A stretch of DNA of 64,000 nucleotides from a virus. Lineage: Duplodnaviria; Caudoviricetes. Under the pieces are notes generated by a model. It was not told the DNA's origin and did not search any database. It saw nothing but the letters and a program-made list of their open reading frames with translations. The first letter of the stretch is position 1, and every line of letters starts with the position of its first letter. The translations under genes and the position numbers were made by a program. Below are positions 24,359 through 40,930 of the stretch, in pieces. The DNA is taken from positions 35,953-99,952 of IMG/VR virus record IMGVR_UViG_2511231106_000002; one strand, 5' to 3'.

Positions 24359-24414
24359 ACGCTTCACCTCGAAAAAGCGGCGAGGCACAAGGCCCCGCCG
24401 CTATTCACTACTAC

Positions 24415-24609
24415 TTATTTCCGGAAGGATTCCATCTGCTTGCGGTGGTACTCTTCTTCCCGTTCATCCCGGTGCCGAGCCATTTCTTCATCCCGCTGGT
24501 CTTTTTTGATATCCGTATAGATCATAGCCACGAAGAATCCTCCGGCGCACAGTGCAACCAGGCAGTACAGGCCATCCAGAATCAGTCTCATCATAGTTTC
24601 CATAATCAC
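24415..24609 (-). CDS. Small single-pass membrane protein
   Basis: Hydrophobic N-terminal stretch, charged tail, AAGGAGG RBS. Confidence 0.65.
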   Translation of the reverse strand: MIMETMMRLILDGLYCLVALCAGGFFVAMIYTDIKKDQRDEEMARHRDEREEEYHRKQMESFRK

Positions 24610-24615
24610 GCCTCC

Positions 24616-25182
24616 TTATGCCAGGAAATCATCATCGTCAGCCGTAGCGAAGTCATCTTCTGCACGCGGCTTGCCGCCAAGGGGTTCACCATCACGGATT
24701 TTCTGCAGGTTGTTCAGGCCGCAGGCGATGCCCTTGTTGCCATTGCTGTTGAAGGCATAGAAGTTGATGGATGCACGGCCATAGACGCCGGAGTAGACTT
24801 CAGAGCGTTCCAGGATATGCTGGCAGTCAGCATCAACGATGCCCGGCTTGGTCGCCGAGTTGGCATTGACGAAGAAGCTGTCTTTATAGGCATCATCGCC
24901 CGGGCGTTCCAGGTCGCCGTCACGGAGCGGCGTTTTGATGGCTTCGAGAGCCGGTACAGTGCGGCCATTGCCCTTGAGCTTGCTTTCGCCTTCTTCGTAA
25001 GCAGCCTTGATGGCAGCGCGGATTTTTTCTACGGTCTTTGTATCCGACTTAGGGATGATCAGGCTGACGCTGTATTTCGGCGTACCGCCGTTGATGGACT
25101 TCGGTTCCCAGACGTTGGCGTAAGACCAGCGCGTATTGACTCCGGTGATTACCTTGCACGGATTGACGTAGTTGTTAGACAT
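24616..25182 (-). CDS. ssDNA-binding protein (DUF2815, gp2.5-like)
   Basis: KYSVSLIIPK, LRDGD, YSGVY, GLNNLQK, acidic DDDDFLA tail. Confidence 0.9.
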   Translation of the reverse strand: MSNNYVNPCKVITGVNTRWSYANVWEPKSINGGTPKYSVSLIIPKSDTKTVEKIRAAIKAAYEEGESKLKGNGRTVPALEAIKTPLRDGDLERPGDDAYKDSFFVNANSATKPGIVDADCQHILERSEVYSGVYGRASINFYAFNSNGNKGIACGLNNLQKIRDGEPLGGKPRAEDDFATADDDDFLA

Positions 25183-25195
25183 AGTAGTTTCCTCC

Positions 25196-26323
25196 TTAAT
25201 TTGCAGCGTTAAAATCATCAGCCGCCGTATGCATCGCCGGACGCTTGTCCGATTCCGGTACCAGGACCGGTTTTCCCTGCGGCTTTTCGACTAAATTTGA
25301 CAGCAGTTCTTCGAACCGCTTCTTGCCGAGCTGTTTTGTCATTGCCGTGATGCCGAGCAGCTTCTTTTCATATGGGTCGAAGCCCGCTTCTTCCACTTTG
25401 GCGGCGACTGCTTCTTCACTTACGTAGCGGCGGTTCGACCGGCCTTCGACCAGTTTCCATCCGTCCCACTGCTTGCCGGAAAGGGCTTGCTGCAATGCGT
25501 ATTCCTTGACATCCCCGGCCCAGTTCACCAGTTCATCGGCCCTCTCCAGGACGGCTTCGATTTCTTCATCCTGCAGCGTGGACGGGACGGCAAAATCATA
25601 CCGGGCCAGTTCCAGATTGTACTCGGCCCGCTTGCGGCAGGTTGCCTTGATCTTGCAGAAGCGGCAGTGGTCACCGGCTTTATATTCGCCCTCACCTTTC
25701 GCCGCCAGTTCTGCCGCAGGCTTCAGCACCGTTTCGGCCCACTGGAGCAGTTCTTCCTTGCTCATGGTGCAGGTGCTGACGTTGTCCCGGCGGGGCTGGA
25801 AGATCGTCATGGACACCTGGCGGATATCATAGATGCCATCAAACAGGTTCAGCGCACCGAGGGCATAGCACATCATCTGCGGATTCTTCTCGGAATCCAC
25901 CAGGACTCCCAAGCCATGCTTGTAATCGATGACTGTCAGGGTATCGTCGGCTACGATGAGGCAGTCGCCTGTTCCAAAACCGCCTGGCACCCACTGGGAA
26001 AAGTCCAGCCGCTGTTCGATCATGATCATCGGGTCCTTGCAGGATGCTTTGGCTGTGGCCAGGCATTCCATGACGAACTGCGCGTATTCATCAGTGCATT
26101 CCGCCATCTCCTCATCAAAGTACGTGAGTCCCTTCGTCGGATCTTCCAGTTTCTGCCCCAGCGCCGTCTTCACCTTGAATTCGCAGAGCGTATGGGCATC
26201 CGTTCCCTGGCGGGCGAATTCACTGGAGGTATCCGGCAGCTTGGCACATTCCTTCGCAGACGGCGGGCAGGCCAGCCAGCGGTAGCAAGAAGATGCGGAC
26301 AGCACCGCATGTTTATCCGGCAT
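25196..26323 (-). CDS. DUF2800 Cas4-like PD-(D/E)xK exonuclease
   Basis: SASS..RW..CPPS, GT.AH, FGTGD, IDYKHG, HCRFC....C. Confidence 0.88.
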   Translation of the reverse strand: MPDKHAVLSASSCYRWLACPPSAKECAKLPDTSSEFARQGTDAHTLCEFKVKTALGQKLEDPTKGLTYFDEEMAECTDEYAQFVMECLATAKASCKDPMIMIEQRLDFSQWVPGGFGTGDCLIVADDTLTVIDYKHGLGVLVDSEKNPQMMCYALGALNLFDGIYDIRQVSMTIFQPRRDNVSTCTMSKEELLQWAETVLKPAAELAAKGEGEYKAGDHCRFCKIKATCRKRAEYNLELARYDFAVPSTLQDEEIEAVLERADELVNWAGDVKEYALQQALSGKQWDGWKLVEGRSNRRYVSEEAVAAKVEEAGFDPYEKKLLGITAMTKQLGKKRFEELLSNLVEKPQGKPVLVPESDKRPAMHTAADDFNAAN

Positions 26324-26624
26324 GGCCAATCACCTCCAGTTCCTTCAGGAACGCTTCATACTGTGCCGCATCAATGCCGGACAGCTTGTCCGCCCCGTAC
26401 TTCTGGATAAGGCTGCGAACTTCGTCCGTGAATCCCTTGCGGGCCTTGTCGGCAGCGACTTTGCGGACATCTTCCAGTGTCAGCGGCTTTTCCAATTTCT
26501 CTGATTTCGCTTCCGAAGCTGTCGGATTATCTTCTTTCACCGCCATGGCCTCGGAAATCTTCAGCAGTGCCTTGCCGCAATCGCCCAGGGCCGCTGCCAG
26601 TTTCTGCAGTTCATCGTTTGTCAT
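26313..26624 (-). CDS. Conserved phage replication-module protein
   Basis: LTLEDVR...LIQKYGADKLS.ID. Confidence 0.75.
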   Translation of the reverse strand: MTNDELQKLAAALGDCGKALLKISEAMAVKEDNPTASEAKSEKLEKPLTLEDVRKVAADKARKGFTDEVRSLIQKYGADKLSGIDAAQYEAFLKELEVIGHAG

Positions 26625-26781
26625 ACGGATTGACTCCTTTCGCACATCTTTGCATTGATAAGAGATGGATGTTCCTAGCGATACTGCGGGTCGTGGCGCT
26701 GATGGTCATCAGCACCGCCGCCAGTTCCCGGTCCAGCTTTTGCTGCTGAGCCAGTTTTTCAGGTGTCTGTGTGTACATCAT
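26611..26781 (-). CDS. Small hypothetical protein (56 aa; not in ORF track)
   Basis: AGGAGG RBS; MMYTQTPEK...ELAAVLMTISATTRSIARNI...; overlaps next start. Confidence 0.65.
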   Translation of the reverse strand: MMYTQTPEKLAQQQKLDRELAAVLMTISATTRSIARNIHLLSMQRCAKGVNPYDKR

Positions 26782-26817
26782 CTTGGGTTCCTCCTTCCTA
26801 AAGGGCTTCTTCGTTCG

Positions 26818-26860
26818 CCCTCCACCAGTAATAGGACAACCGCATCATCGTTAAGTACCG
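26818..26860 (-). promoter_or_regulatory. Putative phage-sigma promoter, copy 1
   Basis: CGGTACTTAAC-N11-TGTCCT-N3-ACT-N4-GAGGG immediately downstream of the sigma-like gene. Confidence 0.7.
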
Positions 26861-26910
26861 ATTCCGAAAAAAAACCGGCCACATTTTTTGTGACCGGGTC
26901 TTTTTTCTTC

Positions 26911-27411
26911 TTAACGGAAGTCTTTGAGATGTTCCTTCAGGAGTGCATACAGCTTGTGTTTGCGCTTGTTCACCGCTTTCTGGCTCAAGCCGACGGCCTT
27001 CCCGGTCGCCGCTTCGCTGGCACCATCGGCAAGCATCAGCAAGATGGTCCGGTCGATATCCTGCAGAGCTGCCAGTTCATGGCGCAGCGCTGCCAGCAAC
27101 TCTTTCTTCACGACTTCTTCCTCTAGGTTTAAGTCATCAGGCACCTCCAGCTCGTAGTCATCCCGCACTTTGTCCGCCGATACCTCATCGGCACCATGCC
27201 GCTGCTGGCGCTTATCTTCCCGCCAGAGCGGACGCATGAATTCATAGTACTGTTCTTTGGTTGCTGGAATCAGGATTGTACGTACCTTACGACAGCCGAT
27301 TTTTGAGCAGCGGACTTCACAGTCCTTGTACGCCTCGGTGATGACGGTTTCTGGAGTGAGTTCCAGAGGAATGTAAAAACGTTTCTCATTGCTTGTCTGT
27401 TTTTTATACAT
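26911..27411 (-). CDS. Sigma-70 region 4-like regulator (phage sigma factor)
   Basis: C-terminal L..L...DR.IL....DG.SE...GK.VGLSQKAVNKRKHK HTH. Confidence 0.82.
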   Translation of the reverse strand: MYKKQTSNEKRFYIPLELTPETVITEAYKDCEVRCSKIGCRKVRTILIPATKEQYYEFMRPLWREDKRQQRHGADEVSADKVRDDYELEVPDDLNLEEEVVKKELLAALRHELAALQDIDRTILLMLADGASEAATGKAVGLSQKAVNKRKHKLYALLKEHLKDFR

Positions 27412-27640
27412 TTTTGTCTCCATTCCGTCCGAGAAGAACGGCGGAGACAAAAAGCTGGCACTGATACAGCATCAGCGCCAGTTTTCTGACAGCCCAAATA
27501 GGCATAGAAAAACACGGTGGATGCATGATCAGCAAAGTACAATCATCGGCTGTACTTTCTGCTTTATGCAACCGCCGCCCTTATAGCGCTATTCGGACTA
27601 CGATTTATTTGTGGCCAGGGGCTCTCTCCCTTGCCTGCCT
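27411..27640 (-). ncRNA. Structured 5' leader / attenuator of the sigma-like gene
   Basis: Long helix AGTCCGAATAG/CTATTTGGGCT, inner hairpin, terminator CTGGCGCTGAT/ATCAGTGCCAG+T5, RBS-sequestering TTTTTGTCTCC/GGAGACAAAAA. Confidence 0.6.
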
Positions 27641-27720
27641 ATAGTCTATGCCAAAATCAAAATCGTGTAATTGACATGAAGTGGCGTAAAATGGAATAAA
27701 ATGGTTTGCTGAAAAAAGGC

Positions 27721-27758
27721 AAAAAAAATAGGCTTCTCACCTTAGTGAGAAGCCTATT
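27721..27758 (-). terminator. Terminator of the defence operon
   Basis: 14-bp perfect stem AATAGGCTTCTCAC/GTGAGAAGCCTATT plus T-run. Confidence 0.88.
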
Positions 27759-27767
27759 ACAAATAGT

Positions 27768-29570
27768 TTATTCTTGATATCCGTCAATCAAGCCATATCT
27801 CCCTATCCCCTTGTTTTTTGTAAAGTGAATAAGGTTTGCACCTTCATAATCGATAGATGGAATTTCATTTTCAATAACAATCGTTTGTGGAGAATCCGCC
27901 CTTGTCAAAAAATATCTAAATAAATGCTCTTTCATGGGCTCCGTAACATACGAATCTCTCTTTGAATCTTTTTCTTTTAATGAAAGAATCGGGGAATCTA
28001 TAACGAAAAGCGTAGGATGATAATGCCCCATCTTTTCCAGACAATTTTCCATTGCAACAGCTAGTATCGTGTTCAAAAAAGCTCGGAATCCCTTTCCTTG
28101 GCTCTTTTTTTCATGACCATTAACGACAATATCATAGCTATCGATATCAAAATACGAATCCAAATAGTTCTGATAATTACAGTATTTTAAAAGTTCGTCT
28201 ACTTCCGTATCAAGGAGTTCTTTAAAGACCTCCTTGAATTTCTCTTTTACATTCAAATGAATGTCAGCAGTTTCTTCATTCTCAATAGCATCACGTTCTT
28301 GCTTAAGAAATGTTGAAAATTGGTCAATCATGGTATTCATTTCAGCAAATCTCAATGAAATTTTAAAATCATCAAGTTGCTTTTTCAACTGCTGGATTTT
28401 AGGTTCAAGTTCTCCTCGTATTTTTTCTTCCTGCTCATTTCTCTGATTAATAAGCATATCTCTTTTCTTTGACAAAGCAGCATATTCTTCCTGTATAGAT
28501 TCCTGGACTGATTGCAAATCCCTGACCTGCATTTCAATTTTTTGCTCTTCTGCTATCGCAGAACCTATACAATCCTCTTCATGTTCATGAGGAAGTTCTC
28601 CATTGCAGAAAGGGCACCTTTCTATTGTTTTGATTTTTTGCGAAACCATATTCCCTTCCGCAATAAAGGTCAGGCGCTTAATATCCGCCTTATATTGTGA
28701 TAAAAGGAGTTGATTCCGATTCATCAAAACCTCATCTTCCGAAATCTGCCGCATTACTTTATTGATTTCCTCTCCAATTTCACGGCATAAGTTCAGGGCT
28801 TCTTTAAGGATTCCTTTAGCAGCTCCGATTTCATCGATCGTTTGATTGATTTTGTTCTGCAATTCAACGGGTTGAAGTAAAGGTAATGCATCATCAAAAG
28901 ATGACTTTTGCCTTTCTAAAAAGCCCATACCTCTATTGACAATTTTCAGCACCCCTTCATCTTTTGCTTTCTTTATTTTGGGATCAATAAAAGCCAAATT
29001 TGGAAGATAGTTATTACCTGTTCCCAGGTACAATAATGCTGTTAAAGTCGGGGTTCCTACCTTTCCTCCTAATCCGTGCTTTCCTTTAAGAACACTGGCT
29101 TTATCATGAATTCGGTCCTCATCTATGATGAAAGTATGATAAAACGTTCTAACTGTCAAAGCCTGCGGTTTTCCTTCCTGCGTTTTAAGAATCTTAGTAT
29201 CAAGAGGAATGTCAAAAAGCTTCATCCAGACATCATTAATAGGTGGATTCTTTTTCCCGCCCTTTAGTTTGTAAGTAGATGTTTCTATACCGTCTACATG
29301 ACTAATTACTTCGAAAGATTGCGTGTTAACATCCCGGCTGATAGAAAGGCCTTCCCCATTAACATCTATTCCTATTTGAATCTTCTCCACTTTTAAATTG
29401 ACATCGAATCGATGAGTACCGGCTCCCATCATATAATCTATACAATCCAACACCATACTTTTCCCGGTATTGGATGGACCATAAATTATATTCAGACCCG
29501 GAGCAAAGTCTATTCTTGATTCTTTTTGATTTGCAGTAATCTTAATCCACTTTATGTAAAACATAAACAT
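27768..29570 (-). CDS. Rad50/SMC-like ABC ATPase of ABC-3C (Lamassu LmuB-like) system
   Basis: GPSNTGKS Walker A, coiled coils, CPFC zinc hook, QGKG signature, FVIDSP Walker B. Confidence 0.85.
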   Translation of the reverse strand: MFMFYIKWIKITANQKESRIDFAPGLNIIYGPSNTGKSMVLDCIDYMMGAGTHRFDVNLKVEKIQIGIDVNGEGLSISRDVNTQSFEVISHVDGIETSTYKLKGGKKNPPINDVWMKLFDIPLDTKILKTQEGKPQALTVRTFYHTFIIDEDRIHDKASVLKGKHGLGGKVGTPTLTALLYLGTGNNYLPNLAFIDPKIKKAKDEGVLKIVNRGMGFLERQKSSFDDALPLLQPVELQNKINQTIDEIGAAKGILKEALNLCREIGEEINKVMRQISEDEVLMNRNQLLLSQYKADIKRLTFIAEGNMVSQKIKTIERCPFCNGELPHEHEEDCIGSAIAEEQKIEMQVRDLQSVQESIQEEYAALSKKRDMLINQRNEQEEKIRGELEPKIQQLKKQLDDFKISLRFAEMNTMIDQFSTFLKQERDAIENEETADIHLNVKEKFKEVFKELLDTEVDELLKYCNYQNYLDSYFDIDSYDIVVNGHEKKSQGKGFRAFLNTILAVAMENCLEKMGHYHPTLFVIDSPILSLKEKDSKRDSYVTEPMKEHLFRYFLTRADSPQTIVIENEIPSIDYEGANLIHFTKNKGIGRYGLIDGYQE

Positions 29571-29578
29571 TTACCCCT

Positions 29579-30082
29579 TTAGTTTGCAATAGGACGATAC
29601 TGAATTTCTTGAAGCAGTTCCTCATCATTTTTGCAACTATATTTTTTCGCGGAAAGCCTTGATACCCTGCGGTATTCCTCTGCATATGTACTATGAAAGC
29701 CGTTTGATATCTCCAATCCATAGTCTGTGATTTTATACTGATATCCCTGATTATTTTTGACTTTCAATATTCCATGCCGTACTAACTTCTTGATTGCTTC
29801 TGTAATCAACGAACGTCTTCCTGCCATTTCAGCATACATAAAATCATTATTGCCATGCAGATTTTCAAGAGCTATACCAAAAACCTTTGCATAACAATTG
29901 ATGAAGTCAAATGCCAATATACGAGTACTCGAAAAAAACAGTTCTGGTACGGAACTCATCAGTAGCATTATTCTTAATTCCATTTCGAAAACCGTATTGA
30001 ATACTTCTTTATTTTTTCTTGCTGTTTCACCCTGGTTACAGATACTGAAGGTATTGAAAATATCCTTTTGCAGCTTAATCAC
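29579..30082 (-). CDS. ABC-3C middle component (LmuC-like)
   Basis: FNTVFEMELRIMLL...FDFI...NLHG...Y.E...RR.LI..AI..L motif; central position. Confidence 0.75.
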   Translation of the reverse strand: MIKLQKDIFNTFSICNQGETARKNKEVFNTVFEMELRIMLLMSSVPELFFSSTRILAFDFINCYAKVFGIALENLHGNNDFMYAEMAGRRSLITEAIKKLVRHGILKVKNNQGYQYKITDYGLEISNGFHSTYAEEYRRVSRLSAKKYSCKNDEELLQEIQYRPIAN

Positions 30083-31088
30083 CCTCTATCCAACTGAGTT
30101 TCTCATCATTGACCAACATATGACAAATTCCTTTCTTTTCCCCTGGTCCGATCCAATTCAGAGTCACTGTTTGTAAATTAGAAGAAAGCTCAACCAATGT
30201 CGCATGCTCCATTACAGCGTTCATTCTGTCATAGCCACAAGCATAATCTTTTTCTTCCGTCGTTACGACACCTTCATACATTTCTTCTTTTACTGCCTCA
30301 AAGTTTTCCTCCTCCTGTGGTGCTACGGTATCTCGAAGTCCCCTCCTAATAGTTTCTGCTAAATAGTAATCTTTTCTTTGTCTGTTAAAATTCTTTTTCA
30401 TATTAGGGCATGAATCGAGATCCTTTACACAATTACATTCCACTCCTGTTTTTTCCTGATAAACGCGGAATAGCTCTGTTACATATTTCATTTCTTCTGT
30501 TGCAATAGTCAAAGGTGGAGACAGCGGAGCAGGCTTTTTGAATTGCCCAACAAACTGCCTGAAAGCTTCTATTTCATGGTTAATATCTGCGGCTGTTACC
30601 TGGGCTGTTTTCGAATAGTCCTCATAAGATGCATCCTTTTTCATATTGTTTGGCAATATGGCATACAAGAACGCTCTACCTAAAAATCCTCCCAAATCAC
30701 CATCCTCATACAGTTTATTTAAATCACCTTTTTCCATTTCAGACAAATCTGATTCCTTGATGAGATTTAGCAACTCAGCCACCATATCATCGGCCTTAAC
30801 CCCACTAAGGACTTTGTCCAAAACCTCATCAGTAAAATATTTCCCTATTCCCTTATATACACGGCCATCATTCGCTGCTTTTTTCAAATTGCCTGGAATG
30901 TCTGCTTCTTGTTTATACCAAAGGCTTGCCGACTTATTATCGATAGTATATGGTTCCCCATGTCTATTGACACAGTCTCCAAGACTAATGACTGGCTCAA
31001 ATAAAATCTTAGCAATTTTAGTCATATTAGGCTTGATGATGCCCTTCGAAAACACCTTAGCAAAAGATGCATAATTGTAAACCCGCAT
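30075..31088 (-). CDS. ABC-3C effector (LmuA-like): unknown N-terminal domain + conserved CTD
   Basis: EMKYV.EL..VY, RQR.DYY.AE, KKGICHMLVN..KL.W C-terminal motifs; GAGGTG RBS. Confidence 0.75.
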   Translation of the reverse strand: MRVYNYASFAKVFSKGIIKPNMTKIAKILFEPVISLGDCVNRHGEPYTIDNKSASLWYKQEADIPGNLKKAANDGRVYKGIGKYFTDEVLDKVLSGVKADDMVAELLNLIKESDLSEMEKGDLNKLYEDGDLGGFLGRAFLYAILPNNMKKDASYEDYSKTAQVTAADINHEIEAFRQFVGQFKKPAPLSPPLTIATEEMKYVTELFRVYQEKTGVECNCVKDLDSCPNMKKNFNRQRKDYYLAETIRRGLRDTVAPQEEENFEAVKEEMYEGVVTTEEKDYACGYDRMNAVMEHATLVELSSNLQTVTLNWIGPGEKKGICHMLVNDEKLSWIEGD

Positions 31089-31223
31089 GAATTATCACCT
31101 CATCCAGACGATAACACACTTTTCATTGATAATAATATTGTACTACATTTTTTATCTTATCCATAGCAATACTACCAAACAATAGGAAACAAGTCAGATG
31201 GCACGACAAATTATCTTTCTATA

Positions 31224-31254
31224 CCATTAACGATGCCATTGCTATCGTTAATGG
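31224..31254. repeat. Inverted repeat near the prophage A end
   Basis: CCATTAACGAT-N9-ATCGTTAATGG. Confidence 0.6.
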
Positions 31255-31403
31255 CATATCCACAGTGTTGCTAAGAACTTATACGATACCTTCTGATTCT
31301 ACCTGCATTTCAGAGCATAAAAAATGCCGGCCTTCTGCCGACGTTTACCAAGCCCCCGCTATATATGGACTTTTCCACTATGCACACCGTTCCCAATATT
31401 GTA

Positions 31404-32423
31404 TCAATCCCAAGCATCTTTGCTCTGGTCATCCGTAATACTGATGTTCCCGTTACTGTCGTTGATCAAAAGCCCGCTGTAGTCATCGACTCCCGTTTTT
31501 TCATCGGTCAGGATCATATTCCCGACTTTGGCATAAGAGATCGTGGTTCCGTTGAAGTTTCGGCTCACGAAATAGTTGTTTAGCATGGTCTTGATGTAGT
31601 CTGCATCTCCGCTGCCGTTGGTTACAGTTAACTTAATGGTGAGGTCGAATAGGCTGGGCGATACCACCGTCACTTCTGGACCGATGGGCCGTACGCTTTC
31701 AATTTTAGCAATCACCTGATTCAGCAGATTCATGGAAGCCGGTTCCCCATTGGCGTCTGTTACTAGCACTTTTACCGTACCTGGACCTTTCCAGATGGGC
31801 AGCACTTTTACATGACCAACTCCGGGGATACTGGAGGCCCATTCAATGTAGTCGTTCACATTCCCGCTGGTGGCCGGCTGGGTTACGTAGAAGTGGAATC
31901 GGTCATACAAGTCTTCATCGCTTTCAGCGTCGAACCCGTCGGCCATGGCTTCTGGATTGTTCACCGACGTGATGCCAGGGATGCTCATGGGAATTACTGT
32001 GATGGTGTTCGCCGCTACGTTCCCAACCGTACCGGCCTCTGTACACTTGACAGGGATGGTGGCTTCATTCTTCACCGCGGTAGTAGTAGTAGTAGTAGTA
32101 AAAGTTACCCCTGCTTCCGTCTGGAACAGCGTGCCCACAGGGATGGTTCCTGTTCCTTTCACAAGGACATTCCCCACGGCTGCTGTAGCCTCTTTCCGTT
32201 CCACCCCGTGGTCAGCCGCAATCAGCGTCAGGTAGTCACCACTGGCCGTTTCGGCAAAAGCTGACTTGTACATTTCTTCCCGCTCCACTTCCTGTTTGTA
32301 GAATTCTATGGAGTTGGAAGCCAATACATCATTGGCAAAGGTCCCTTCATAGGTACTGACCCTGTCGCCGGTATTCTTCTGCAGCCGTTTCAGTATGGTC
32401 TCCTGGCTTTCTGCTTCATACAC
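31404..32423 (-). CDS. Baseplate J/gp47 protein (XkdT-like), probably 3'-truncated at the junction
   Basis: AFAETASGDYL, G.VGNVAANTI, DAESDEDL, SGNVNDY..WA, W.GPGTVKV; ends ITDDQ/SKDAWD with no downstream wedge or fibre genes. Confidence 0.85.
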   Translation of the reverse strand: MYEAESQETILKRLQKNTGDRVSTYEGTFANDVLASNSIEFYKQEVEREEMYKSAFAETASGDYLTLIAADHGVERKEATAAVGNVLVKGTGTIPVGTLFQTEAGVTFTTTTTTTAVKNEATIPVKCTEAGTVGNVAANTITVIPMSIPGITSVNNPEAMADGFDAESDEDLYDRFHFYVTQPATSGNVNDYIEWASSIPGVGHVKVLPIWKGPGTVKVLVTDANGEPASMNLLNQVIAKIESVRPIGPEVTVVSPSLFDLTIKLTVTNGSGDADYIKTMLNNYFVSRNFNGTTISYAKVGNMILTDEKTGVDDYSGLLINDSNGNISITDDQSKDAWD

Positions 32424-32850
32424 TTACACTCACCTCCCCGTAAATGGTCGTCAGGCTGATATCTACGGTCAGCTTCTCACGCTCTGCCGTAAACTCAATG
32501 CTGTCGATGCTCTTGATATAGGGATTCACCATCAGACATTCGATGATGATCCGTTTTATCTCACTGTAGCGTTCCTGGCCACCCATGACCTTACCGATGT
32601 AGGGCCGTACCTCCAGTCCGTATTGCCAGCTGTAGGCCAAATACCGAAAGCGCTCTGTCATAAGGGCTTTGTAGATCCAGATTTTCAAGGCGTCGTTCCC
32701 GGATACAATGATGTGCTGCCCGTTCCCGTCATATTTGAAATCGTGCTTTTCGAAATCGTAATCCATCTCCAGGGGCACGTTCAGGTTTTCCGTGTAATCG
32801 GTCTCTGCGCTGGTCCCCGTGAAGGGATATTCATCACTCACACCTGCCAC
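32416..32850 (-). CDS. XkdS/DUF2634 baseplate protein
   Basis: ALKIWIYKAL.TERFRY.AYS..YG.E; TIYGE. Confidence 0.88.
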   Translation of the reverse strand: MAGVSDEYPFTGTSAETDYTENLNVPLEMDYDFEKHDFKYDGNGQHIIVSGNDALKIWIYKALMTERFRYLAYSWQYGLEVRPYIGKVMGGQERYSEIKRIIIECLMVNPYIKSIDSIEFTAEREKLTVDISLTTIYGEVSVSV

Positions 32851-32854
32851 CTCC

Positions 32855-33250
32855 TTATAACTTCACCAGGCTGTCGGCAATGATGTACAGCTGGTCATCC
32901 TGCCCGCCTACCGGGATCACTGTCACCAGCGTCCCCGGTTTCAGGGTGTCCGTCCAGGTTTCATCGTTGTCGATGGGATGGTTGTGGCTCTCGTACTTGG
33001 CTTCCCCGCTGCCGCCGGCCCGGTTGCTGGTCTGCCCCACCATGTGGCGGGTGTAATTCGGCAGCAGGTACCGACTGATGTACAAATCCTTTGTATCCAA
33101 GACAATGTTGTTTATACGTACCGTCAGGGCGGGCGGCGACGTGACCACGATACCCACCTGGGTACCTGTTGGCCGGGCCCCGGTAGCTACCTGGTGCATC
33201 ACGTCAACCACCTTGGCCATGGATTGCGCTGCCGATGGGATTTCTGCCAT
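32855..33250 (-). CDS. XkdR/DUF2577 baseplate spike-like protein
   Basis: G.V..PP.L, HNH, DTLKPG..V. Confidence 0.82.
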   Translation of the reverse strand: MAEIPSAAQSMAKVVDVMHQVATGARPTGTQVGIVVTSPPALTVRINNIVLDTKDLYISRYLLPNYTRHMVGQTSNRAGGSGEAKYESHNHPIDNDETWTDTLKPGTLVTVIPVGGQDDQLYIIADSLVKL

Positions 33251-33253
33251 GGC

Positions 33254-34318
33254 TTACACCTTCCTTTCAGAGTCAGTAAGCTCCTGTTTGTTCATTAGGT
33301 TCTCGAATTCGATTTCCAGCTTCATCGTATGGATCCCATTTTCGAAGCTGTGGGTATCCGACTTGATCCAGAACTGGCCCGTCATTTCCGGCAGGATATC
33401 GCTGATCTTGATGGAGTAGGAAGCCTTGGCCCGATAGTCCCCCAGCATCTCAAGGATGCCGGTACGGTCAGGACCATGGAAGATCTTGGTCAGCTGGTCT
33501 TTCATGGCTTTCTTGGGGTTCTGCTTGTAGACCGCCTGTACCATGGAGTACTTCTTGATGGAGTCGTCCTTGGACTGATAGCCCGTCACATTGCCCTGCT
33601 GGTCCGTGAGCATGATCTTGTTGACCACCTTCTCGATGGATTCCTTATATCGGCTGTTCATGATATTGGAATACTGGTTCGCCTCGAAATTCTCGATGAG
33701 CGTCCCTTTCTTGATCACGTCCAGCTTGTCCCCATCCATCACCGGGTGGAACACCACGTCCGGATCACTTTCCTTTTTACTGGCATTGATCTGGGCAGAA
33801 GATTCCGTGTAGGCCATCATGATGATCTGGTAACCCGTTTTGTCTTGGGCGATGAAGGAAACCTTGATACCCGTTTCGGCCAGATTCCCTACCTTGATGC
33901 CCATTTCCTGGCAAATGGAACGGGCAATGTCCTCCGCCTTGATGTTGCTGAACTTCCGGGTGGTCTTGGAACGGGTCAGGATGAACAGATTGTCATAGGC
34001 CAGCACCTTCACGGTAGAAGCCTGCACGTTCTTTTCCACGGAATACACATTGCCCTGGAACTGCAAGTTTCCATCTTCGTCGTAGCCGTAGACGGTCTCC
34101 CCGCAGTTGATCACATAGTTGGGCAGGTTGGGGTCCCTAGCGTCTTGGGCATACTGAAACTCCAGACGTCTTGCGACCTGCAGCCGAGACCCTTCCCAAG
34201 TGATTTTCCCCATGGTTAAGGTGGATAAATCGTCCATTGACTCCGTGGTCTTAGTGGTTTTCTTGCCGGTCCTGTCGGTGGTTGTTTCTGTTTTGATACT
34301 CTTATGTTTGATAATCAT
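33254..34318 (-). CDS. XkdQ-like baseplate hub protein
   Basis: ITWEGS..QVARRLEF, AYD, GQFWIKSDTHSFENG.H.M.L. Confidence 0.85.
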   Translation of the reverse strand: MIIKHKSIKTETTTDRTGKKTTKTTESMDDLSTLTMGKITWEGSRLQVARRLEFQYAQDARDPNLPNYVINCGETVYGYDEDGNLQFQGNVYSVEKNVQASTVKVLAYDNLFILTRSKTTRKFSNIKAEDIARSICQEMGIKVGNLAETGIKVSFIAQDKTGYQIIMMAYTESSAQINASKKESDPDVVFHPVMDGDKLDVIKKGTLIENFEANQYSNIMNSRYKESIEKVVNKIMLTDQQGNVTGYQSKDDSIKKYSMVQAVYKQNPKKAMKDQLTKIFHGPDRTGILEMLGDYRAKASYSIKISDILPEMTGQFWIKSDTHSFENGIHTMKLEIEFENLMNKQELTDSERKV

Positions 34319-35028
34319 AATTTCTTCCCCAGAATCTTGCCGATCCGTCCGGCATTGTTGATTACGAGAGAGCCCAGGTTGTTGCTCTTCACGACCCTGC
34401 GCCAATGGTTGTAGTCACCATAGGCCTTCTTGGTTGCGTCCAGAAAGTCCCCGGCCTTCTTCTGCCAGGTCACTTTCTTGGGCGTGTCCCCTTCCGGCCG
34501 TTTCTTCAGCCCGGTGTTTTCGTCCATCGGCTTATTGTTGTTGGCCGCCGGGATGTTCAGGTCCTTGTACTCCGTAAAGGACAGTTCGTAGTAGATATCC
34601 CGCGTACCGTCCTTCTCGAAGTAGTTGAAGCCCATGAGCCCCATCATCAGGTTGACGGGGCTGTCTGTGATAATCACCCGCACGGGCTTCCTGGCCTCCT
34701 TCACCTTGGTGAAGTACTCCACCAGCTCCGCAGGGCTCTTGGAGTCGTCCACAGTGAAGGGGTATTCGTGGGTCTGGGGGGGAAAGAAGCTGGAAAAGGT
34801 CAGAGTGCGCGCTTTGGGCATCCCGAAAATCACCGCTTCCCCCACCCGGGTGATGTCTACCACCTTGTTTTTCTGTCCAGAACTCAGCTGGTACTTGGAG
34901 GGAGTCACCGGGATGATGACTTCCCCGAACTGCTCAGACTTCACCAGGATCTGCCGGCGGGTGCTGATCATATTCATGCCATTCAGGATGGCCGACAGCA
35001 CATTCAGTGCTGTTCCAAAAGTACTCAT
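34315..35028 (-). CDS. XkdP-like tail tube initiator (degenerate LysM)
   Basis: IPVTP, FSSFFP, DIYYELSFTEYK. Confidence 0.8.
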   Translation of the reverse strand: MSTFGTALNVLSAILNGMNMISTRRQILVKSEQFGEVIIPVTPSKYQLSSGQKNKVVDITRVGEAVIFGMPKARTLTFSSFFPPQTHEYPFTVDDSKSPAELVEYFTKVKEARKPVRVIITDSPVNLMMGLMGFNYFEKDGTRDIYYELSFTEYKDLNIPAANNNKPMDENTGLKKRPEGDTPKKVTWQKKAGDFLDATKKAYGDYNHWRRVVKSNNLGSLVINNAGRIGKILGKKL

Positions 35029-37874
35029 GCAAGCCCACCTCCATAGTTCTCCTGCCCCTGCATAATCAGCTGTGCCAGTTCATAGGCAATCTGCTGGATG
35101 TCGCTTTCCTGCCGCACCACGAAAGTATTCCCGCTGATGTTGACCACCGGGGCCCCTCCAGGTGCGGACTGGACGAACTGCTTTTCCAGCATCTTTTCCG
35201 TTGTCGCATGGGGATAGATCCGGCTGCCCTGTGGCAGGTCCACGATTTCACCGCCATGTTCATTGATTTCCGTGAGTCCGCCTTGATAAAATTCAGCACC
35301 AGCCGCATTGTGCTGGCTTCTCCACCATTTTCCAAGGGACGTGTTTGCCGCCCAGGAAGAGGCACCTGCAAGCGATCCAGACGCAGACGCACCAATATCG
35401 GACCAAGAACGGGATGCCGACTGTTTAATGCTCTCCCAGATGGATATTCCGCGATTCTTTAAGTTTTCAAGCGCGGATTCGATGTCAGCAACGGCATTAT
35501 CAACATACCCGCTCCACTCACTGGTAGTAGTTCCAACGGTTTGTTTTAGATCCTCCCAGGCAGATTGAGCGCTATCTTTCATGGTTTCAACCTGAACCCC
35601 AATATCATTACAGGCTTGGGTCAAAGAAACTCCAATCCCTATCAGACTGTCTAGAGCTGTCTGTTTCATGGCTGCCCAGTCTTGATTGAACCGTTCAGCG
35701 GTTCCATCCATGGCATTTCCCCAGGCATCCATTGCACTAGGTGCATCCGAACTAAAGAGCCATGCCTTGAAGTTATCCATATCAGCCTTGAAACGGGATG
35801 CCATATCAAGGCCGTTCCCCAGTGTGTCGCCATTGATATCGCCATTGAGCGCCGTCTGTTCATCGTTGCCTAGATTCAGGTACATTTCGCTGTTGGAATC
35901 ACTGCGCCTTGCAGACCAAACTGGATCCTGCATGGCATTGTTGATGGCTTGACCAACGCCAAACCCAACCAAAGAGCCAGCAGGCCCGCCGACAATTGTT
36001 CCTATTGCCGTGACGCCCGTTTGTACAGCGCCTCCGATTCCGGCCCTGGTCTTCGAATCTTTGTCTTCTGCATTGAAGACTTCATACACGGTTTTAGCAG
36101 CCGCCCCAAACGTAGGCAGCCAGCGAAGCAAGGTCATGGCAAGGCTAGCTCCTGAACCTCCATTCCCACCAGGAAGCGGAGTAGCTCCACCGCTACTTGT
36201 TACGGTGCCGTTCACAACGACGTTGTTAGCTTGAACAATCATATCCGTTGCGCCAATGCCACCGGTCCCAGGGATTCCTGGTGCTTGGTTCTTAAACAGC
36301 CCCTTGGCATTTTTCAAAAAGCTGACAATCTTTTTTAAGCCAAATACTAAGGTGCCTCCAGCCAGCACAGAGCCCACACCATCAAGCTGCAGGAATTTGT
36401 CAATGAGCTGCTGTACTGCTGTCTTAGCTAAATCCACGGCATCGGTAAAGGTAAAACCCTTTTCTAATGCTGTGCTGAGTTTTCGCAAATCAAAAGTCAC
36501 AGCATCGACAAACTCCTTAATGGTGCTTCCAGGGCCTTGTTTCATGAAAGACAGTTGAACAGATTCCCAAGCGGACTGCACACTCTTGATGGACCCCCAC
36601 AAGTTATCAGTGGCCGTTTTCTCCATTTTCTTGGCCGCACCTTGAGCATGATCCACGGCATCAGCAAGCTTGTTCCAGTTGCCATCAGATTCATTCATGA
36701 TTGCGAGGAACCCAGAAATCGCGTCCTCGCCAGCAAGCTGTTTAGCCAAACGGGTCTGGTCTGCCGTGCTCAATCCCTTAAAGTCCTTGCGCAGTTCCTT
36801 TAGGATGGTCCGCAGACTCTTTACTTTCCCCGCGCTATCTGTAAGGCTGAACCCAAGTTCGGCCATTGCGGAGGCAGACTGTTTTGTTGGCGCTGCCAGT
36901 CTAGTAAACATGCTGCGCATTGCAGTGCCCGCTTTTTCAGCCTTGATGCCACTATTCGCCATAAGTCCAATAGCAAGCGCCGTATCTTCAATGCTAAACC
37001 CCAACGTCCCAGCTAGCGGGGCCACATATTTGAAGGTGTAGCCCATCATGCCTACGTTGGTATTGGAATTGGTTGCGGCCTGCGCCAGTACATCGGCAAA
37101 CCGACCGGCATCTTGTGCCTGCAGCTTAAATGCGCTCAAGGCATCCGTCACAATATCAGAAACCTGACCTAAATCTTCGCCGGAGGCAGCAGCTAAGGAC
37201 ATGATTCCCGAAAGACCCTTCAGCATATCCTCCGTCTTCCACCCCGCCATTGCCATGTATTCCAACGCCTTACCAGATTCTGCTGCAGTAAACTGAGTAT
37301 TTTTCCCTTGCTCCCGAGCCTTCGCTGTTAAAGCCGCAAATTCGGCATCAGTAGCTCCAGAAATAGCCTTTACTCGGCTCATCTGGTGGGTGAAATCGGT
37401 ATAGACCCTAAGCGTATCAGCAACGCCTAGCCCCACTCCGGCCCAACCAATCATTTGTGTCGGAAGTCCAGAAAGAGCGCCGGATGCCGCGTTGGTTAAT
37501 TTATTTTTAATGGTCTTGAGCGGTCCGACGACTTTTTGTTTAATTCCCACATTGATGGTATGTGTCTTTCCTGTCAAAGCCTTGATGTCGCTGGCTACTT
37601 TCCGAATCGTGCCCGTCGCACTATCCCTTGTTTGGATTTTTGTCGTAAAGGTGCCTTTTATTCCTTCCAGCGATTTCTTGATTCCGTTGACCTTTCCTAC
37701 AGCAGCTACCGCAGACCGTCCCATCTTTTCCATGCTGGAACTGGTGCGGTCTACGGAGGCTCCCGCTCCTTCCACTGTCTGTCGGAAGGAACCCATGCCG
37801 CCCTTAGCCTTATTGACTGCAACGGTGAACCTATCTTTAAGTTCAAGTGTTGCACTTAATTTGTAGTCCGCCAT
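35025..37874 (-). CDS. Tape measure protein (TP901 family)
   Basis: MSRVKAISGAT, TQFTA.E, MAMAGW, LAAASGEDL; C-terminal E.GGEIV.LP.GS.I. Confidence 0.92.
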   Translation of the reverse strand: MADYKLSATLELKDRFTVAVNKAKGGMGSFRQTVEGAGASVDRTSSSMEKMGRSAVAAVGKVNGIKKSLEGIKGTFTTKIQTRDSATGTIRKVASDIKALTGKTHTINVGIKQKVVGPLKTIKNKLTNAASGALSGLPTQMIGWAGVGLGVADTLRVYTDFTHQMSRVKAISGATDAEFAALTAKAREQGKNTQFTAAESGKALEYMAMAGWKTEDMLKGLSGIMSLAAASGEDLGQVSDIVTDALSAFKLQAQDAGRFADVLAQAATNSNTNVGMMGYTFKYVAPLAGTLGFSIEDTALAIGLMANSGIKAEKAGTAMRSMFTRLAAPTKQSASAMAELGFSLTDSAGKVKSLRTILKELRKDFKGLSTADQTRLAKQLAGEDAISGFLAIMNESDGNWNKLADAVDHAQGAAKKMEKTATDNLWGSIKSVQSAWESVQLSFMKQGPGSTIKEFVDAVTFDLRKLSTALEKGFTFTDAVDLAKTAVQQLIDKFLQLDGVGSVLAGGTLVFGLKKIVSFLKNAKGLFKNQAPGIPGTGGIGATDMIVQANNVVVNGTVTSSGGATPLPGGNGGSGASLAMTLLRWLPTFGAAAKTVYEVFNAEDKDSKTRAGIGGAVQTGVTAIGTIVGGPAGSLVGFGVGQAINNAMQDPVWSARRSDSNSEMYLNLGNDEQTALNGDINGDTLGNGLDMASRFKADMDNFKAWLFSSDAPSAMDAWGNAMDGTAERFNQDWAAMKQTALDSLIGIGVSLTQACNDIGVQVETMKDSAQSAWEDLKQTVGTTTSEWSGYVDNAVADIESALENLKNRGISIWESIKQSASRSWSDIGASASGSLAGASSWAANTSLGKWWRSQHNAAGAEFYQGGLTEINEHGGEIVDLPQGSRIYPHATTEKMLEKQFVQSAPGGAPVVNISGNTFVVRQESDIQQIAYELAQLIMQGQENYGGGLA

Positions 37875-38062
37875 GAGCTAGGCACCTTCCCTTCTGCAAT
37901 AGCGATTGCTTGTTCCTGTTGCGCTTTCTTTTCTTCTTCCATGGCGCATAAGCAAAACAGTTTTTCTGTTCTAGATAGCGAAAAGAAATATGCCAGCGGG
38001 TGCCCTTTGAGGACCAGATAGGCAGCCGTAGTCGCCTCCCAGTCCTCCTTGATCAGTTTTTT
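37856..38062 (-). CDS. -1 frameshift extension of the tail assembly chaperone (lambda G-T analogue)
   Basis: A AAA AAC slippery heptamer before TGA; -1 frame open: LIKEDWEATTAAYLVLKGHPLAYFF... Confidence 0.8.
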   Translation of the reverse strand, partial: KKLIKEDWEATTAAYLVLKGHPLAYFFSLSRTEKLFCLCAMEEEKKAQQEQAIAIAEGKVPSSWRTTN

Positions 38063-38415
38063 ACTTCTTCATGGACCTTTGCTTCCACGCTTTCGCCGTA
38101 GCCAGCTTTGGCCATGACAGCCTTGGCAATGGCCGTTACTTCGCCAGGTTCGAAGAGCTTTTTCACGATATCGAGCGGTTCACTGCAGCCGTAAGCCTTC
38201 TGCAGTTTGTCATCCTTCAGATTTGGAGATGTGCACAGGTTGTAGACCATGTACTCATCGTTATCTTCTGTTAGATCAAGCACTTCTGCGACAAAGGCTT
38301 TTGTTGGTTTTTTCATTGTGATTGTGCCAACGGATGTCTCCAGGTCATACTCTTCTTTCCGCTTCTTTTCAATCGTTTCTTTCTGAGCAATCAATTCTTC
38401 AATAGATACAGCCAT
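38053..38415 (-). CDS. Tail assembly chaperone (XkdN-like)
   Basis: PNLKD..LQKAYG..EP.DIV..LF.PGEV; ends EEVKN. Confidence 0.88.
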   Translation of the reverse strand: MAVSIEELIAQKETIEKKRKEEYDLETSVGTITMKKPTKAFVAEVLDLTEDNDEYMVYNLCTSPNLKDDKLQKAYGCSEPLDIVKKLFEPGEVTAIAKAVMAKAGYGESVEAKVHEEVKN

Positions 38416-38473
38416 TTCAATACCTCCTTACATGTAAAAAGGAGCCAACGGGCTTTGTTAGCTCCTATATGAT

Positions 38474-38929
38474 TCATTCCACCGTTTCCATGAACTGCGC
38501 ATCCTGCGGCGTAAATCCAAAAGGAAGATCCTTTTCCACGACCTTTCCCTTTTCAAAAGTCATAAGCTGCAGTTCGTTGAACCAGACATTATCGATCACG
38601 ACGCGTTCCTTTTGTCCATCAATGGCATCGGGATCATCAATCAGCGCCGTCATCTGGAATCTCGGATCATGTCCGCTCTTCCATTCTTCCAAAACGGCGG
38701 CAATATTGCGGTTGATGACGCTCTTGATGGTCAGTGTGCCTTCCCCTTTGAGGCTCACAATCTTAGAGTCTTCAGAGATATCACAAGTTACGTCTTCCCG
38801 GTTGGCAATGACCTTACATTCATATTTTTGGATTTCAAAAATCAATTCGCCGTTGCACCAGACCTTACCATAAGACCCATTCCAACGGCGACGTCCTCTA
38901 TATTTCACGTCATATTCGCTTCTGTTCAT
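38474..38929 (-). CDS. Tail tube protein (XkdM family)
   Basis: DDPDA.DGQKERV....VWFNEL. Confidence 0.9.
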   Translation of the reverse strand: MNRSEYDVKYRGRRRWNGSYGKVWCNGELIFEIQKYECKVIANREDVTCDISEDSKIVSLKGEGTLTIKSVINRNIAAVLEEWKSGHDPRFQMTALIDDPDAIDGQKERVVIDNVWFNELQLMTFEKGKVVEKDLPFGFTPQDAQFMETVE

Positions 38930-38944
38930 GCTTCAAAACCCTCC

Positions 38945-40075
38945 TTAGAACGTAAAGTTGATGGTCAGGTCTTCCATAGCGTTGACCGGTTTCACGCTGC
39001 CAGCAAGTGCCACTTTGGTGCCAGTGTTGTACTGACGGATTTGCATCTTGGTCATTTCGGTTGGATCATCGCCATGGAGTTTTGCGTAATTAGCCTGGAA
39101 CTGCTCATCAATGTCCACCGTGTTATTGCCATTCTGGTCCAACACATTGCCCTTGATGCCTTCGAAGTATACCTTGATGGCTCCAATGAACAGCATCTTG
39201 CGGTCGTAGTCGTTGATGTACTTGCCTACGTAATACTTCTTAAATGTGTCACGAATATCGTCGGTAATCATATCCAAAGCTTCAATGATTTTAATGTACC
39301 GATAGTCCTCACCTTTATCCGTGGTAAAAGTAGTCAAGCTGTTACAAGCCCGGGCAATCTTAACTCCATCGCCATCCTGTTCATCAAGCAGCAGCATTTC
39401 CCCCTTATCAATCAGGGTATTGATATCCTCGTAGACTTCGACGCTCTCGACTTCAGTAAGCTTAAAGTAAGTCGCACTGCGGTCTAAAGCAAGGCCTGCC
39501 AAGATACCCGCAATCCTCGCCGTATACTGCAGGGCCGTATAATTTGTATAAACCGGCTTGCCAGTGGGATCCGTATCGGTCTGTACCTTAATGTCGTTCG
39601 TGCAAAAATTAACGATGCCTTCGTGGTCTGCAGCCTGATCAGCCAGGACAGCCTTAAAAGTCTTGCGCTTGATGGTCCGCTGCGTCTTAATCCAGCTGGC
39701 AAGGTCCTGCTGCTCCTGAGTAGTGGCCGTTGGCGCACACAACCAGTTCCATTTGATGGACGCAAGCATTTTAAGCACGTTCGCCTGAGTATTCTCAGCC
39801 TCTTCCACAGATTCCAATGGCAGCGTATAAACCAAAATCCTCAAAGGCGTCCCCAGCAAACACTTCTTGATCAAGTCAATATTGCCTTCAGTAAAGACTT
39901 CTTCCGGGATATCGGAAACATCTCGAATCGTATAATTTTTAATTTCATCAGTAGAATTGTTGTGCAAGATCATCGCAACAATTCCGCGGGCACTCCGCTT
40001 GATCGCAGTTGTAGCTTTCGTCCGGAAATTAATGATGACCTCGGGCAATCCAAACAGTTCCTGTTCATTCGCCAT
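38945..40075 (-). CDS. Tail sheath protein
   Basis: AIKRSARGIV, RIAGILAGL, RACNSLTT, NAMEDL. Confidence 0.9.
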   Translation of the reverse strand: MANEQELFGLPEVIINFRTKATTAIKRSARGIVAMILHNNSTDEIKNYTIRDVSDIPEEVFTEGNIDLIKKCLLGTPLRILVYTLPLESVEEAENTQANVLKMLASIKWNWLCAPTATTQEQQDLASWIKTQRTIKRKTFKAVLADQAADHEGIVNFCTNDIKVQTDTDPTGKPVYTNYTALQYTARIAGILAGLALDRSATYFKLTEVESVEVYEDINTLIDKGEMLLLDEQDGDGVKIARACNSLTTFTTDKGEDYRYIKIIEALDMITDDIRDTFKKYYVGKYINDYDRKMLFIGAIKVYFEGIKGNVLDQNGNNTVDIDEQFQANYAKLHGDDPTEMTKMQIRQYNTGTKVALAGSVKPVNAMEDLTINFTF

Positions 40076-40088
40076 TCGTCATTCCTCC

Positions 40089-40568
40089 TTAATCTTTTTC
40101 AGTCATTTCTGTTCCATTCAGGGTAAATACCAAAGTCTGCACCAGTTCACCACGGATATAACCAACTTCCTCATCCGTCCAGGCATCCGTGAACTGGAGG
40201 TCGAATATGTAGTGCAGCACATCATCCACCATGGTCGTTTCGGCCAACAGGATGGTGATGTACCGGTCCCCCACCTGCAGGTAAGGCCTGAACAGCAGGT
40301 CCAATGCGTCAGCTACATCAAAAACATCAGTACGATTCACTCTACCTTTGGCATCTTTTGGATGGATATACGTTACATCCACCTGGATCGTTCGGTCGTA
40401 ATAAACATCGTCAAGAGTTGTGTTAATACTAGTGGTAAATTCCACATAAAAATAAGGCGCCTTCGACTTTTCAACGTTGTCGAAATGCACCTTACAATTT
40501 GGATATTTGGTTTTTAGTTTCTCCGTAATAGCAGCCTTGAGGTTTCTCAATGCAATCAACGGCATCAC
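40089..40568 (-). CDS. Tail terminator/completion protein
   Basis: Position; PYFYVE, VDDVLHY.FDL. Confidence 0.72.
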   Translation of the reverse strand: MMPLIALRNLKAAITEKLKTKYPNCKVHFDNVEKSKAPYFYVEFTTSINTTLDDVYYDRTIQVDVTYIHPKDAKGRVNRTDVFDVADALDLLFRPYLQVGDRYITILLAETTMVDDVLHYIFDLQFTDAWTDEEVGYIRGELVQTLVFTLNGTEMTEKD

Positions 40569-40930
40569 CCTCCCAGTATGGTCTTTAAGATGGCTTCACA
40601 ATCAGCTTCAAAGCTTTTGCTCGCTTGAAGGAGTCCTCGATGCAACATTTTTCGGCCTTTCACAAAGCCTCCTTTTGGAGTTCGGTGTCCGTATTCGACG
40701 TGCGCAGCATAGTCCACGTTATTGTAAATTTCGACTTTCCCCTGGACTGCCCTTGACCGCTTCCATCCAGTTTTAAGCCTCCCGGTATCAGTCGGGGTGT
40801 TTTCCTTGACTCTCCCCAAGACAACCTCAGCTTCTTGCCTAACGAACATGTCCATCTTACGGACCCCCTGGTCTTCAACTTGCTTCAAACGGTCCTCAAA
40901 AATGTCAAACCCACCAAAATGAATCCCCAT
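40565..40930 (-). CDS. HK97 gp10-like protein
   Basis: TPTDTGRLK.GW, YAAHVEYGHR, FVKG..ML. Confidence 0.88.
   Translation of the reverse strand: MGIHFGGFDIFEDRLKQVEDQGVRKMDMFVRQEAEVVLGRVKENTPTDTGRLKTGWKRSRAVQGKVEIYNNVDYAAHVEYGHRTPKGGFVKGRKMLHRGLLQASKSFEADCEAILKTILGG

Follow-up and report, generated by a model that had tools for sequence, protein, structure and literature searches.

The window analysed here is a stretch of 64,000 nucleotides corresponding to bases 35953-99952 of the 99,952-bp contig C1 (IMG/VR record IMGVR_UViG_2511231106_000002), and the 36 kb lying to the left of it on the same contig were examined as well. One minus-strand ORF of the window encodes a baseplate J protein of 339 residues in which the Baseplate_J domain is complete (PF04865, the family of Mu gp47, P2 gpJ and PBSX XkdT; residues 62-301 match positions 2-253 of the 255 in the profile with E 1.6e-68). 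The gene closes a PBSX/Mu-like tail module, where Pfam identifies sheath, tube, chaperone, tape measure, YQBQ, DUF2577 and sheath initiator genes, the last of which overlaps the start of the J gene by 8 nt. The C-terminus translates as ..NISITDDQ-SKDAWD-stop, and a sequence-only reading of this DNA, in which J was described as normal up to ...NISITDDQ and then continuing SKDAWD*, is borne out both by the translation and by the full Pfam domain. On the 3' side of the ORF a non-coding spacer of 315 nt (31089-31403) is followed by three genes of low GC content (0.36-0.39), which make up an ABC-3C defence operon, and beyond these lie the replication module and then the head and contractile-tail modules of another phage. 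No Gp48/XkdU-like, fibre or lysis genes were found among the ORFs and Pfam matches directly downstream of the J gene in the window, in agreement with the same reading, where the expected wedge, fibre and lysis genes were noted to be replaced by a spacer and the defence end of an unrelated prophage. In the following the phage that carries the ABC-3C operon is called A and the one to which the J gene described above belongs is called B; the J proteins of the two are 42% identical. The coordinates are collected in Table 1.

Table 1 Features of the interrupted J gene and of the two prophages (positions refer to the window unless C1 or L001 is given).
Feature	Position	Strand	Basis or remark
Hybrid baseplate J ORF, 339 aa	31404..32423	minus	Pfam Baseplate_J
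Native 5' part of B's J, codons 1-333	31425..32423	minus	95% identity to intact J of L003-L006 and DNA alignment
Foreign tail of hybrid J', 6 codons (SKDAWD) and stop, from the P' arm of A	31404..31424	minus	Translation; relatives have IPHVKEVVFL
Crossover dinucleotide GA (TC on the plus strand)	31424..31425	minus	Only sequence common to attB, attP and both junctions, within a 3-nt AGA identity
Second core copy	C1 7567-7568		P arm at C1 7569-7594
P' arm of A, 26 nt	31398..31423	minus	Outer 10-bp inverted repeat at 31398-31407; same arm recurs beside many flanks
Conserved end segment of A next to P'	31307..31397	minus	31307-31425 conserved 76-100% in ~100 relatives
Variable cargo slot of A	27401..31306	minus	Relatives share the backbone to 27400 and the end segment from 31307
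CTD6 of ABC-3C operon	30075-31088	minus	Pfam, low GC
MC2 of ABC-3C operon	29579-30082	minus	Pfam, low GC
ABC/SMC-like ATPase of ABC-3C operon	27768-29570	minus	Pfam, low GC
A backbone in the window	1..27400	minus	Pfam; continues past the window start
Large serine recombinase 1 of A, 566 aa	L001 17763..19463		Resolvase, Recombinase and Zn_ribbon_recom (Pfam)
Large serine recombinase 2 of A, 522 aa	L001 16210..17778		Resolvase, Recombinase and Zn_ribbon_recom (Pfam)
B right-hand part upstream of J	32416..64000	minus	Pfam
B tyrosine integrase	62933..64000	plus	Runs off the contig end; RhuM-family gene beside it

Intact versions of the B-type J gene are present in four IMG/VR contigs (L003-L006), where the protein has 343 residues and ends ..TDDQ-IPHVKEVVFL, the stop codon overlapping the start of a Gp48-like gene. 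The match between these proteins and the J protein of the window shows 95% identity over residues 1-333 and ends exactly at residue 333 (..TDDQ), and for this reason we regard the last six codons as foreign and the break as no natural protein end. Gln333 is the last native residue, and the final base of its codon is the G of the GA core described below. The junction had been placed from the letters at about position 31425, between ..GATGACCAG and AGCAAAG.., and this placement proved exact to the base, the crossover dinucleotide being 31424-31425. A natural SKDAWD ending of J proteins, which had also been considered, is not what the homologues have.

The part of phage A lying within the window encodes, according to Pfam, a DUF2800 nuclease, an Enc34-type SSB, PolA, Rha, a D5-type primase, a VRR-NUC protein, an SNF2 helicase, two DNA methylases, TerS, TerL, portal, ClpP, capsid and tail sheath, and past the window start (L002/L001) follow YQBQ, DUF2577, sheath initiator, an own J of 355 aa, Gp48, a Gp10_C fibre and an amidase. 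The earlier statement that the inserted phage encodes a contractile tail of its own is thus confirmed by the Pfam matches for sheath, baseplate and J. Phage A furthermore carries two tandem large serine recombinases (LSRs), a pair with many relatives in IMG/VR, most of them in the same tandem arrangement. At the end of A next to the hybrid J gene, a slot between the shared backbone and the shared end segment holds the ABC-3C operon here and in about a dozen contigs, and in other relatives it holds different cargo of 1.6-3.9 kb.

Prophage B looks complete, with a size of ~40 kb, and is cut into two halves flanking A. Its genes include a tyrosine integrase, RhuM, an HTH repressor, an antirepressor, replication genes, terS and terL, an SPP1-type portal and a capsid gene, followed by the sheath, tube, tape measure, YQBQ, DUF2577 and sheath initiator genes of the tail module that ends with J. 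The 100-kb record has no host DNA on either side, and neither the attachment site of B itself nor the host species can be read from it.

The missing half of J was found on the far side of A. With the Gp48 and fibre proteins of A as tblastn queries against the contig, second and divergent copies were obtained at C1 6996-7517 and 5573-6286, respectively, on the strand of J, and Pfam identified a Gp48-like gene, two Gp10_C fibres and an Amidase_2 endolysin in this left end of C1. Immediately 5' of B's Gp48 copy, at C1 ~7,570 and below, are the ten codons that J lacks (..IPHVKEVVFL-stop), the stop again overlapping the GTG start codon of the Gp48-like gene. The J remainder and the Gp48-like, fibre and lysis genes are therefore located 59.8 kb from the break, on the same contig and strand and outside the window. 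In a three-way alignment the window tracks the intact gene up to the break and the left sequence of C1 tracks it from the break on, the BLAST match of the left half stopping at the same nucleotide. The sequence-only reading had proposed to look for the missing J 3' codons and a DUF2313 gene at the far end of the insert, and the J codons are there, joined to a Gp48/DUF2313-type gene and followed by fibre and lysis genes. A directly adjoins both parts of B, with no host DNA in between. The insert is flanked on each side by part of a single prophage, and attB thus lies inside the resident prophage, in the coding sequence of the core virion gene for baseplate J and not in a host-derived accessory or cargo region. 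The same site is kept with at most one mismatch over 82 nt in the four B-type relatives, and it is empty in all four of them.

When the two junctions and the intact J of L003 are aligned, they share only AGA/GA, and there are no long direct repeats at the ends of the insert, the length of which is 59.8 kb between the junctions. The attP site has 54 bp and is exactly symmetric, with a 10-bp outer inverted repeat and 16 nt on each side of GA as well as an inner 5-bp inverted repeat. An intact attP in the related contig L144 has its arms separated by a central GA, which identifies the core as GA and not AG, and GA is constant at the core in all seven B+P' junctions from viral contigs and in all 37 distinct junctions from metagenomes. 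The two arms of the contig were joined in silico, and the resulting 54-nt attP was found exactly in 5 independent gut metagenome contigs, one of which contains an 82-nt version of the rebuilt site. Likewise, joining the two halves of J gave an 82-nt attB that matches L003-L006 with one mismatch. The proposal of an att junction, and of a rebuilding of attP and attB from it, is in this way supported, as both sites could be rebuilt from the junctions and both are intact in independent contigs. Judged from the DNA, the features of the junctions are signatures of a large serine integrase.

The recombinase genes do not adjoin the left junction and are separated from it by 8.6 kb, where cargo and IS elements are found and where relatives share most of the cargo. 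An interpretation of this 8.6-kb stretch as a separate element was rejected, since it is mostly shared downstream of the recombinases in relatives and since the outer P arm pairs exactly with P' 59.8 kb away. Inside A only a 10-11-nt attP half-site recurs, upstream of the recombinase operon. There a third exact copy of the outer 10-mer of attP (L001:19479-19488, on C1 outside the window) is positioned just 5' of the first recombinase gene and within the spacer of a promoter-like TTGATA-N18-TATATA, and it is kept in 25 of 37 relatives, down to ~58% protein identity. This third copy of the outer repeat may be an operator for integrase autoregulation.

The sites used by relatives of A were surveyed by scanning viral, metagenome and genome contigs for the 26-nt P' arm. 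It is present exactly in 7 viral, 83 human-gut metagenome and 10 genome contigs with many different flanks, and the ten genomes are all Negativicutes (Megasphaera, Veillonella, Acidaminococcus, Allisonella and Selenomonadaceae). The ~100 junctions represent 37 distinct B arms, and ~13 loci have an intact attP. Approximately 30 of the 37 B arms, when read in frame with GA as part of an Asp codon, end in a hydrophobic strand and are preceded by FxTP-type methylase or ComFC motifs. Pfam classifies the ORFs on the B side as HsdM_N+N6_Mtase proteins cut at profile position ~50 of 311, or as ComFC zinc-ribbon N-termini, and the B' arms encode DPxCGxG or DDIYTTG. In the closest relative of A (recombinases 97-98% identical, same arms, a 55-kb contig) the P' arm is joined to hsdM (L166), and in three further contigs (L101, L163 and L192) an identical P arm is joined to DPACGSG or DPTCGTAG codons, that is, to methylase motif I. 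L101, with a second recombinase that is 94% identical in DNA, sits in hsdM. Other members of the family are joined to comFC-type genes, which are split between ILLV and DD. Right ends that are 98-100% identical to that of A and carry the same ABC-3C cargo adjoin at least eight different B arms; these come from short contigs that do not include the recombinase genes, and a direct link from recombinase to target is available for only 2-3 loci, namely this contig (J), the relative with 97-98% identity (hsdM) and L101 (hsdM). From these codons we take the usual sites of the lineage to be the motif I (Asp-Pro-x-Cys-Gly) codons of N6-adenine methylases, mostly hsdM, together with the ILLVDD codons of comFC, and integration should inactivate the restriction-modification or competence gene of the host.

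Two loci from this survey have an unusual layout. In L192 (844-3437) the B+P' and P+B' junctions in a methylase gene are only ~2.6 kb apart, and this could be a mini-element or a deletion remnant devoid of recombinases, while in L210 (271-3742) a further P arm lies at a distance of 3.4 kb from an intact attP.

The J gene is the site in none of the other junctions (0 of the 37 distinct B arms, in ~100 junctions with the same P' arm, among searched contigs from which close relatives of this record may be missing), so the suggestion that related elements recurrently target baseplate J finds no support there. As to the site itself, the right half-site of J fits the conserved positions of the methylase B' arms, and its B arm departs from the weak B consensus (T at -5 in 30 of 37). 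With a weight matrix built from only 6-7 true B' arms, the B' half-site of J ranks 16-18 among the 13,328 GA positions of the contig (top 0.13%), near the weakest true sites. The idea that J is a unique mimic of the methylase half-site was rejected, as about 15 positions in the contig score higher with this matrix. The homologous position in A's own J, which gives a poor ungapped alignment, has no similar site. Because the matrix rests on 6-7 sites and about 15 positions score higher, the argument for a pseudo-site from the matrix is suggestive, not strong. Relatives of A sit in 37 other sites, none of them J, and the fit of the J half-site is one-sided; for these reasons J is, on the population data, most likely a secondary (pseudo-attB) site and no dedicated anti-prophage target. 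The sequence-only reading had left two options, targeted prophage parasitism and integration with relaxed specificity, and it is the second that is favoured by the 37 other sites and by the near-identical phages in at least eight of them, while the first is disfavoured by the lack of any other J junction.

Taken together, the data are quite probably explained by two nested prophages, of which A integrated by serine recombination into the J gene of B, with J serving as a secondary site of a multi-targeting LSR phage. According to this explanation, A would be a temperate myophage of 59.8 kb with two tandem LSRs, and the resident B a prophage of ~40 kb with a tyrosine integrase and a PBSX/Mu-like contractile tail. 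Conservative serine recombination would have taken place between the symmetric 54-bp attP of A and a site in B's J that lies ten codons ahead of its stop, with strand exchange at GA. The lineage of A would be one of multi-targeting LSR phages of gut Negativicutes, for which the usual landing DNA would encode a beta-strand followed by Asp. Such landing motifs would be motif I of N6-adenine methylases (mostly hsdM, DPxCGxG) and ILLVDD of the ComFC phosphoribosyltransferase, and J would resemble the methylase site on its right half only.

An improbable alternative is a dedicated warfare between prophages, in which A, or a sub-lineage, would have become adapted to the J gene of B-type prophages as its target, so that a competitor is disarmed and its induction is tied to the excision of A. 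The position of the insertion would suit this purpose, as the late operon of B is split at a structural gene and a terminator-like hairpin lies behind the truncated J, and the site is reusable, given its conservation in the B-type relatives mentioned above; serine-integrase ICEs that target traG of other ICEs provide a precedent (PMC4701971). Against it stand the ~100 other junctions with the same arm, none of which is in J, and the whereabouts of the closest relatives, since phages with the same P and P' arms and recombinases that are 97-98% identical are in hsdM and right ends with 98-100% identity are at eight or more other sites. Moreover, all four B-type relatives that were found have an empty J site. 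It is also possible, though doubtful, that the integrases have evolved to read a degenerate DNA site that is set by a protein motif (a beta-strand followed by Asp-Pro-x-Cys-Gly or Asp-Asp), whereby many Negativicutes would be lysogenised and the type I restriction-modification or competence of the host switched off, and occasionally a rival prophage, the nested B needing the excision of A for its tails and lysis in a hierarchical and reversible control.

The record is a metagenome-derived virus contig, and two unrelated prophage contigs might have been joined at a short shared sequence during metagenome assembly. Such a chimera would have to account for a pair of reciprocal junctions, 59.8 kb from each other, at which a single gene is divided with base precision and which have the symmetric halves of attP on their inner sides, for an identity at the joint of just 2-3 nt, and for the presence of the rebuilt attP as well as the rebuilt attB in independent contigs, and because of these signatures of the junctions and att sites we consider it very unlikely. 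The physical continuity of the contig is taken here from the reciprocal structure of the junctions alone. The same signatures rule out that there was no insertion, with J ending naturally in SKDAWD or with B being a deleted remnant to which A is merely adjacent (tandem prophages at a host site). The complete J domain in an ORF of 339 aa, near the typical length of J proteins, would lend itself to such a reading, but the 95%-identical relatives end differently, and beyond A, in the orientation of J and with no host DNA intervening, the contig has the codons that J lacks as well as every distal tail and lysis gene of B.

With A nested in the J gene, the truncated J' lacks its last 10 residues and has 6 foreign ones instead, and the genes for the Gp48-like wedge, the two fibres, the holins and the endolysin are 60 kb away from the rest of the operon. 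A consensus scan found a terminator-like hairpin (31342-31326) with a T run about 60 nt past the stop of J', within the 119-nt end segment that is conserved in the relatives. On account of this hairpin at the end of A, the distal late genes of B are presumably cut off from the late transcription of B. Between the DUF4268 gene of A and the Gp48 gene of B no promoter-like or terminator-like site was found, and read-through from the former into the latter is possible. As long as A is in place, we infer, transcription from the late promoter of B would allow neither the completion of B's tails nor lysis. Excision by the integrase and a directionality factor would restore J exactly, and both products of such an excision, attP and attB, exist in nature in independent contigs.

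Prophages that split host genes by means of serine integrases are textbook knowledge, as exemplified by A118 and phi10403S in comK, SPbeta with SprA in spsM, and skin in sigK, and serine integrases are likewise known from phiC31 and Bxb1. Phage A shares with A118, SPbeta, skin, phiC31 and Bxb1 the LSRs with Resolvase, Recombinase and zinc-ribbon domains, the attP of ~50 bp with imperfect inverted-repeat arms and the 2-bp crossover. In common with the gene-inserted LSR prophages it has the position inside an ORF, the precise restoration expected on excision and a competence gene (here comFC) among the targets of its lineage. Unlike them, A hits a gene of another prophage, has two tandem recombinases and belongs to a lineage with many sites.

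Another parallel is provided by the multi-targeting LSRs, which place closely related elements in a wide range of divergent genes, with a degenerate motif around a fixed core dinucleotide (Durrant et al. 2022, PMC10083194). In that study a cluster of recombinases at least 90% identical was called multi-targeting when present in more than three divergent target gene clusters, and DUF4368 was common, though not obligatory, in the multi-targeting clade (PMC10083194). The lineage of A resembles these LSRs in occupying many divergent genes with a degenerate motif around a fixed core, but differs from them in that the recombinases of A have no Pfam hit to DUF4368 in either of the two proteins and in that the targets are not AT-rich and are tied to the codons of conserved protein motifs.

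Integration of prophages into prophages has been described in E. coli, where the attB is of host origin and lies in accessory or cargo DNA of the resident prophage (Nakamura et al. 2021, PMC8112680). An attB inside a resident prophage and a nested cluster are found here too, but in the present case the site is in a virion structural gene, the late operon is split, the integrase is a serine integrase and the host would be a gut Negativicute. Streptococcal ICEs with triplets of serine integrases are inserted in hsdM, mutT or the traG gene of another ICE and occasionally in secondary sites (Ambroset et al. 2016, PMC4701971). A resembles them in having more than one serine integrase in tandem, in the use of hsdM by its lineage, in very short repeats, in the insertion into a core gene of another element and in occasional secondary sites; those elements are conjugative and belong to Streptococcus, whereas the element studied here is a tailed phage of Negativicutes with a pair of integrases and with a baseplate gene as the one that is hit. 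Each of the concepts has thus been published before, be it the nesting of prophages, serine integrases with many targets, or insertion in hsdM or a core gene of a second element. The present case stands apart in that the element is a tailed phage with two recombinases, that it sits in a gene for a virion structural protein of a second prophage, and that its degenerate range of targets has been sampled very well.

The locus provides a natural case in which a temperate phage has interrupted, with base precision, a gene for a virion structural protein of a second one, and both recombination products are present in independent samples. The nesting should leave the resident prophage non-productive until the intruder leaves, which bears on the competition between prophages. 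It also bears on provirus predictions, as the 100-kb "virus" of this record is two. The wider result on the targets may matter more, namely a common phage lineage of gut Negativicutes found in methylase motif-I codons and comFC. It brings a natural collection of attB variants of a serine integrase pair, sampled in depth and useful for studies of integrase specificity and of the inactivation of host defence genes by prophages.

Phage A carries further cargo. At its left end (L001:9600-16100, on C1 outside the window) are genes for a class A beta-lactamase, an rve-type IS, two DDE_5 transposases, RtcB and the DUF4268 protein, the beta-lactamase being a resistance gene carried within a prophage. 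The closest relative, L013, lacks both an IS (C1 12441-14021) and a 680-bp piece (11206-11885) of this region, and we therefore regard both as recent insertions. A low-GC cassette between the lysis genes of A and the recombinases (L002:2267-5134, C1 20267-23134) encodes a SacI-type restriction endonuclease, a C5 cytosine methylase and an HhH-GPD glycosylase-like protein, and constitutes a second defence cargo of this phage. Finally, the large terminase of A (6572-9184 in the window) is a protein of 870 aa with a LAGLIDADG domain (residues ~289-339) N-terminal to its ATPase and nuclease domains, pointing to an intein or to fusion with a homing endonuclease.
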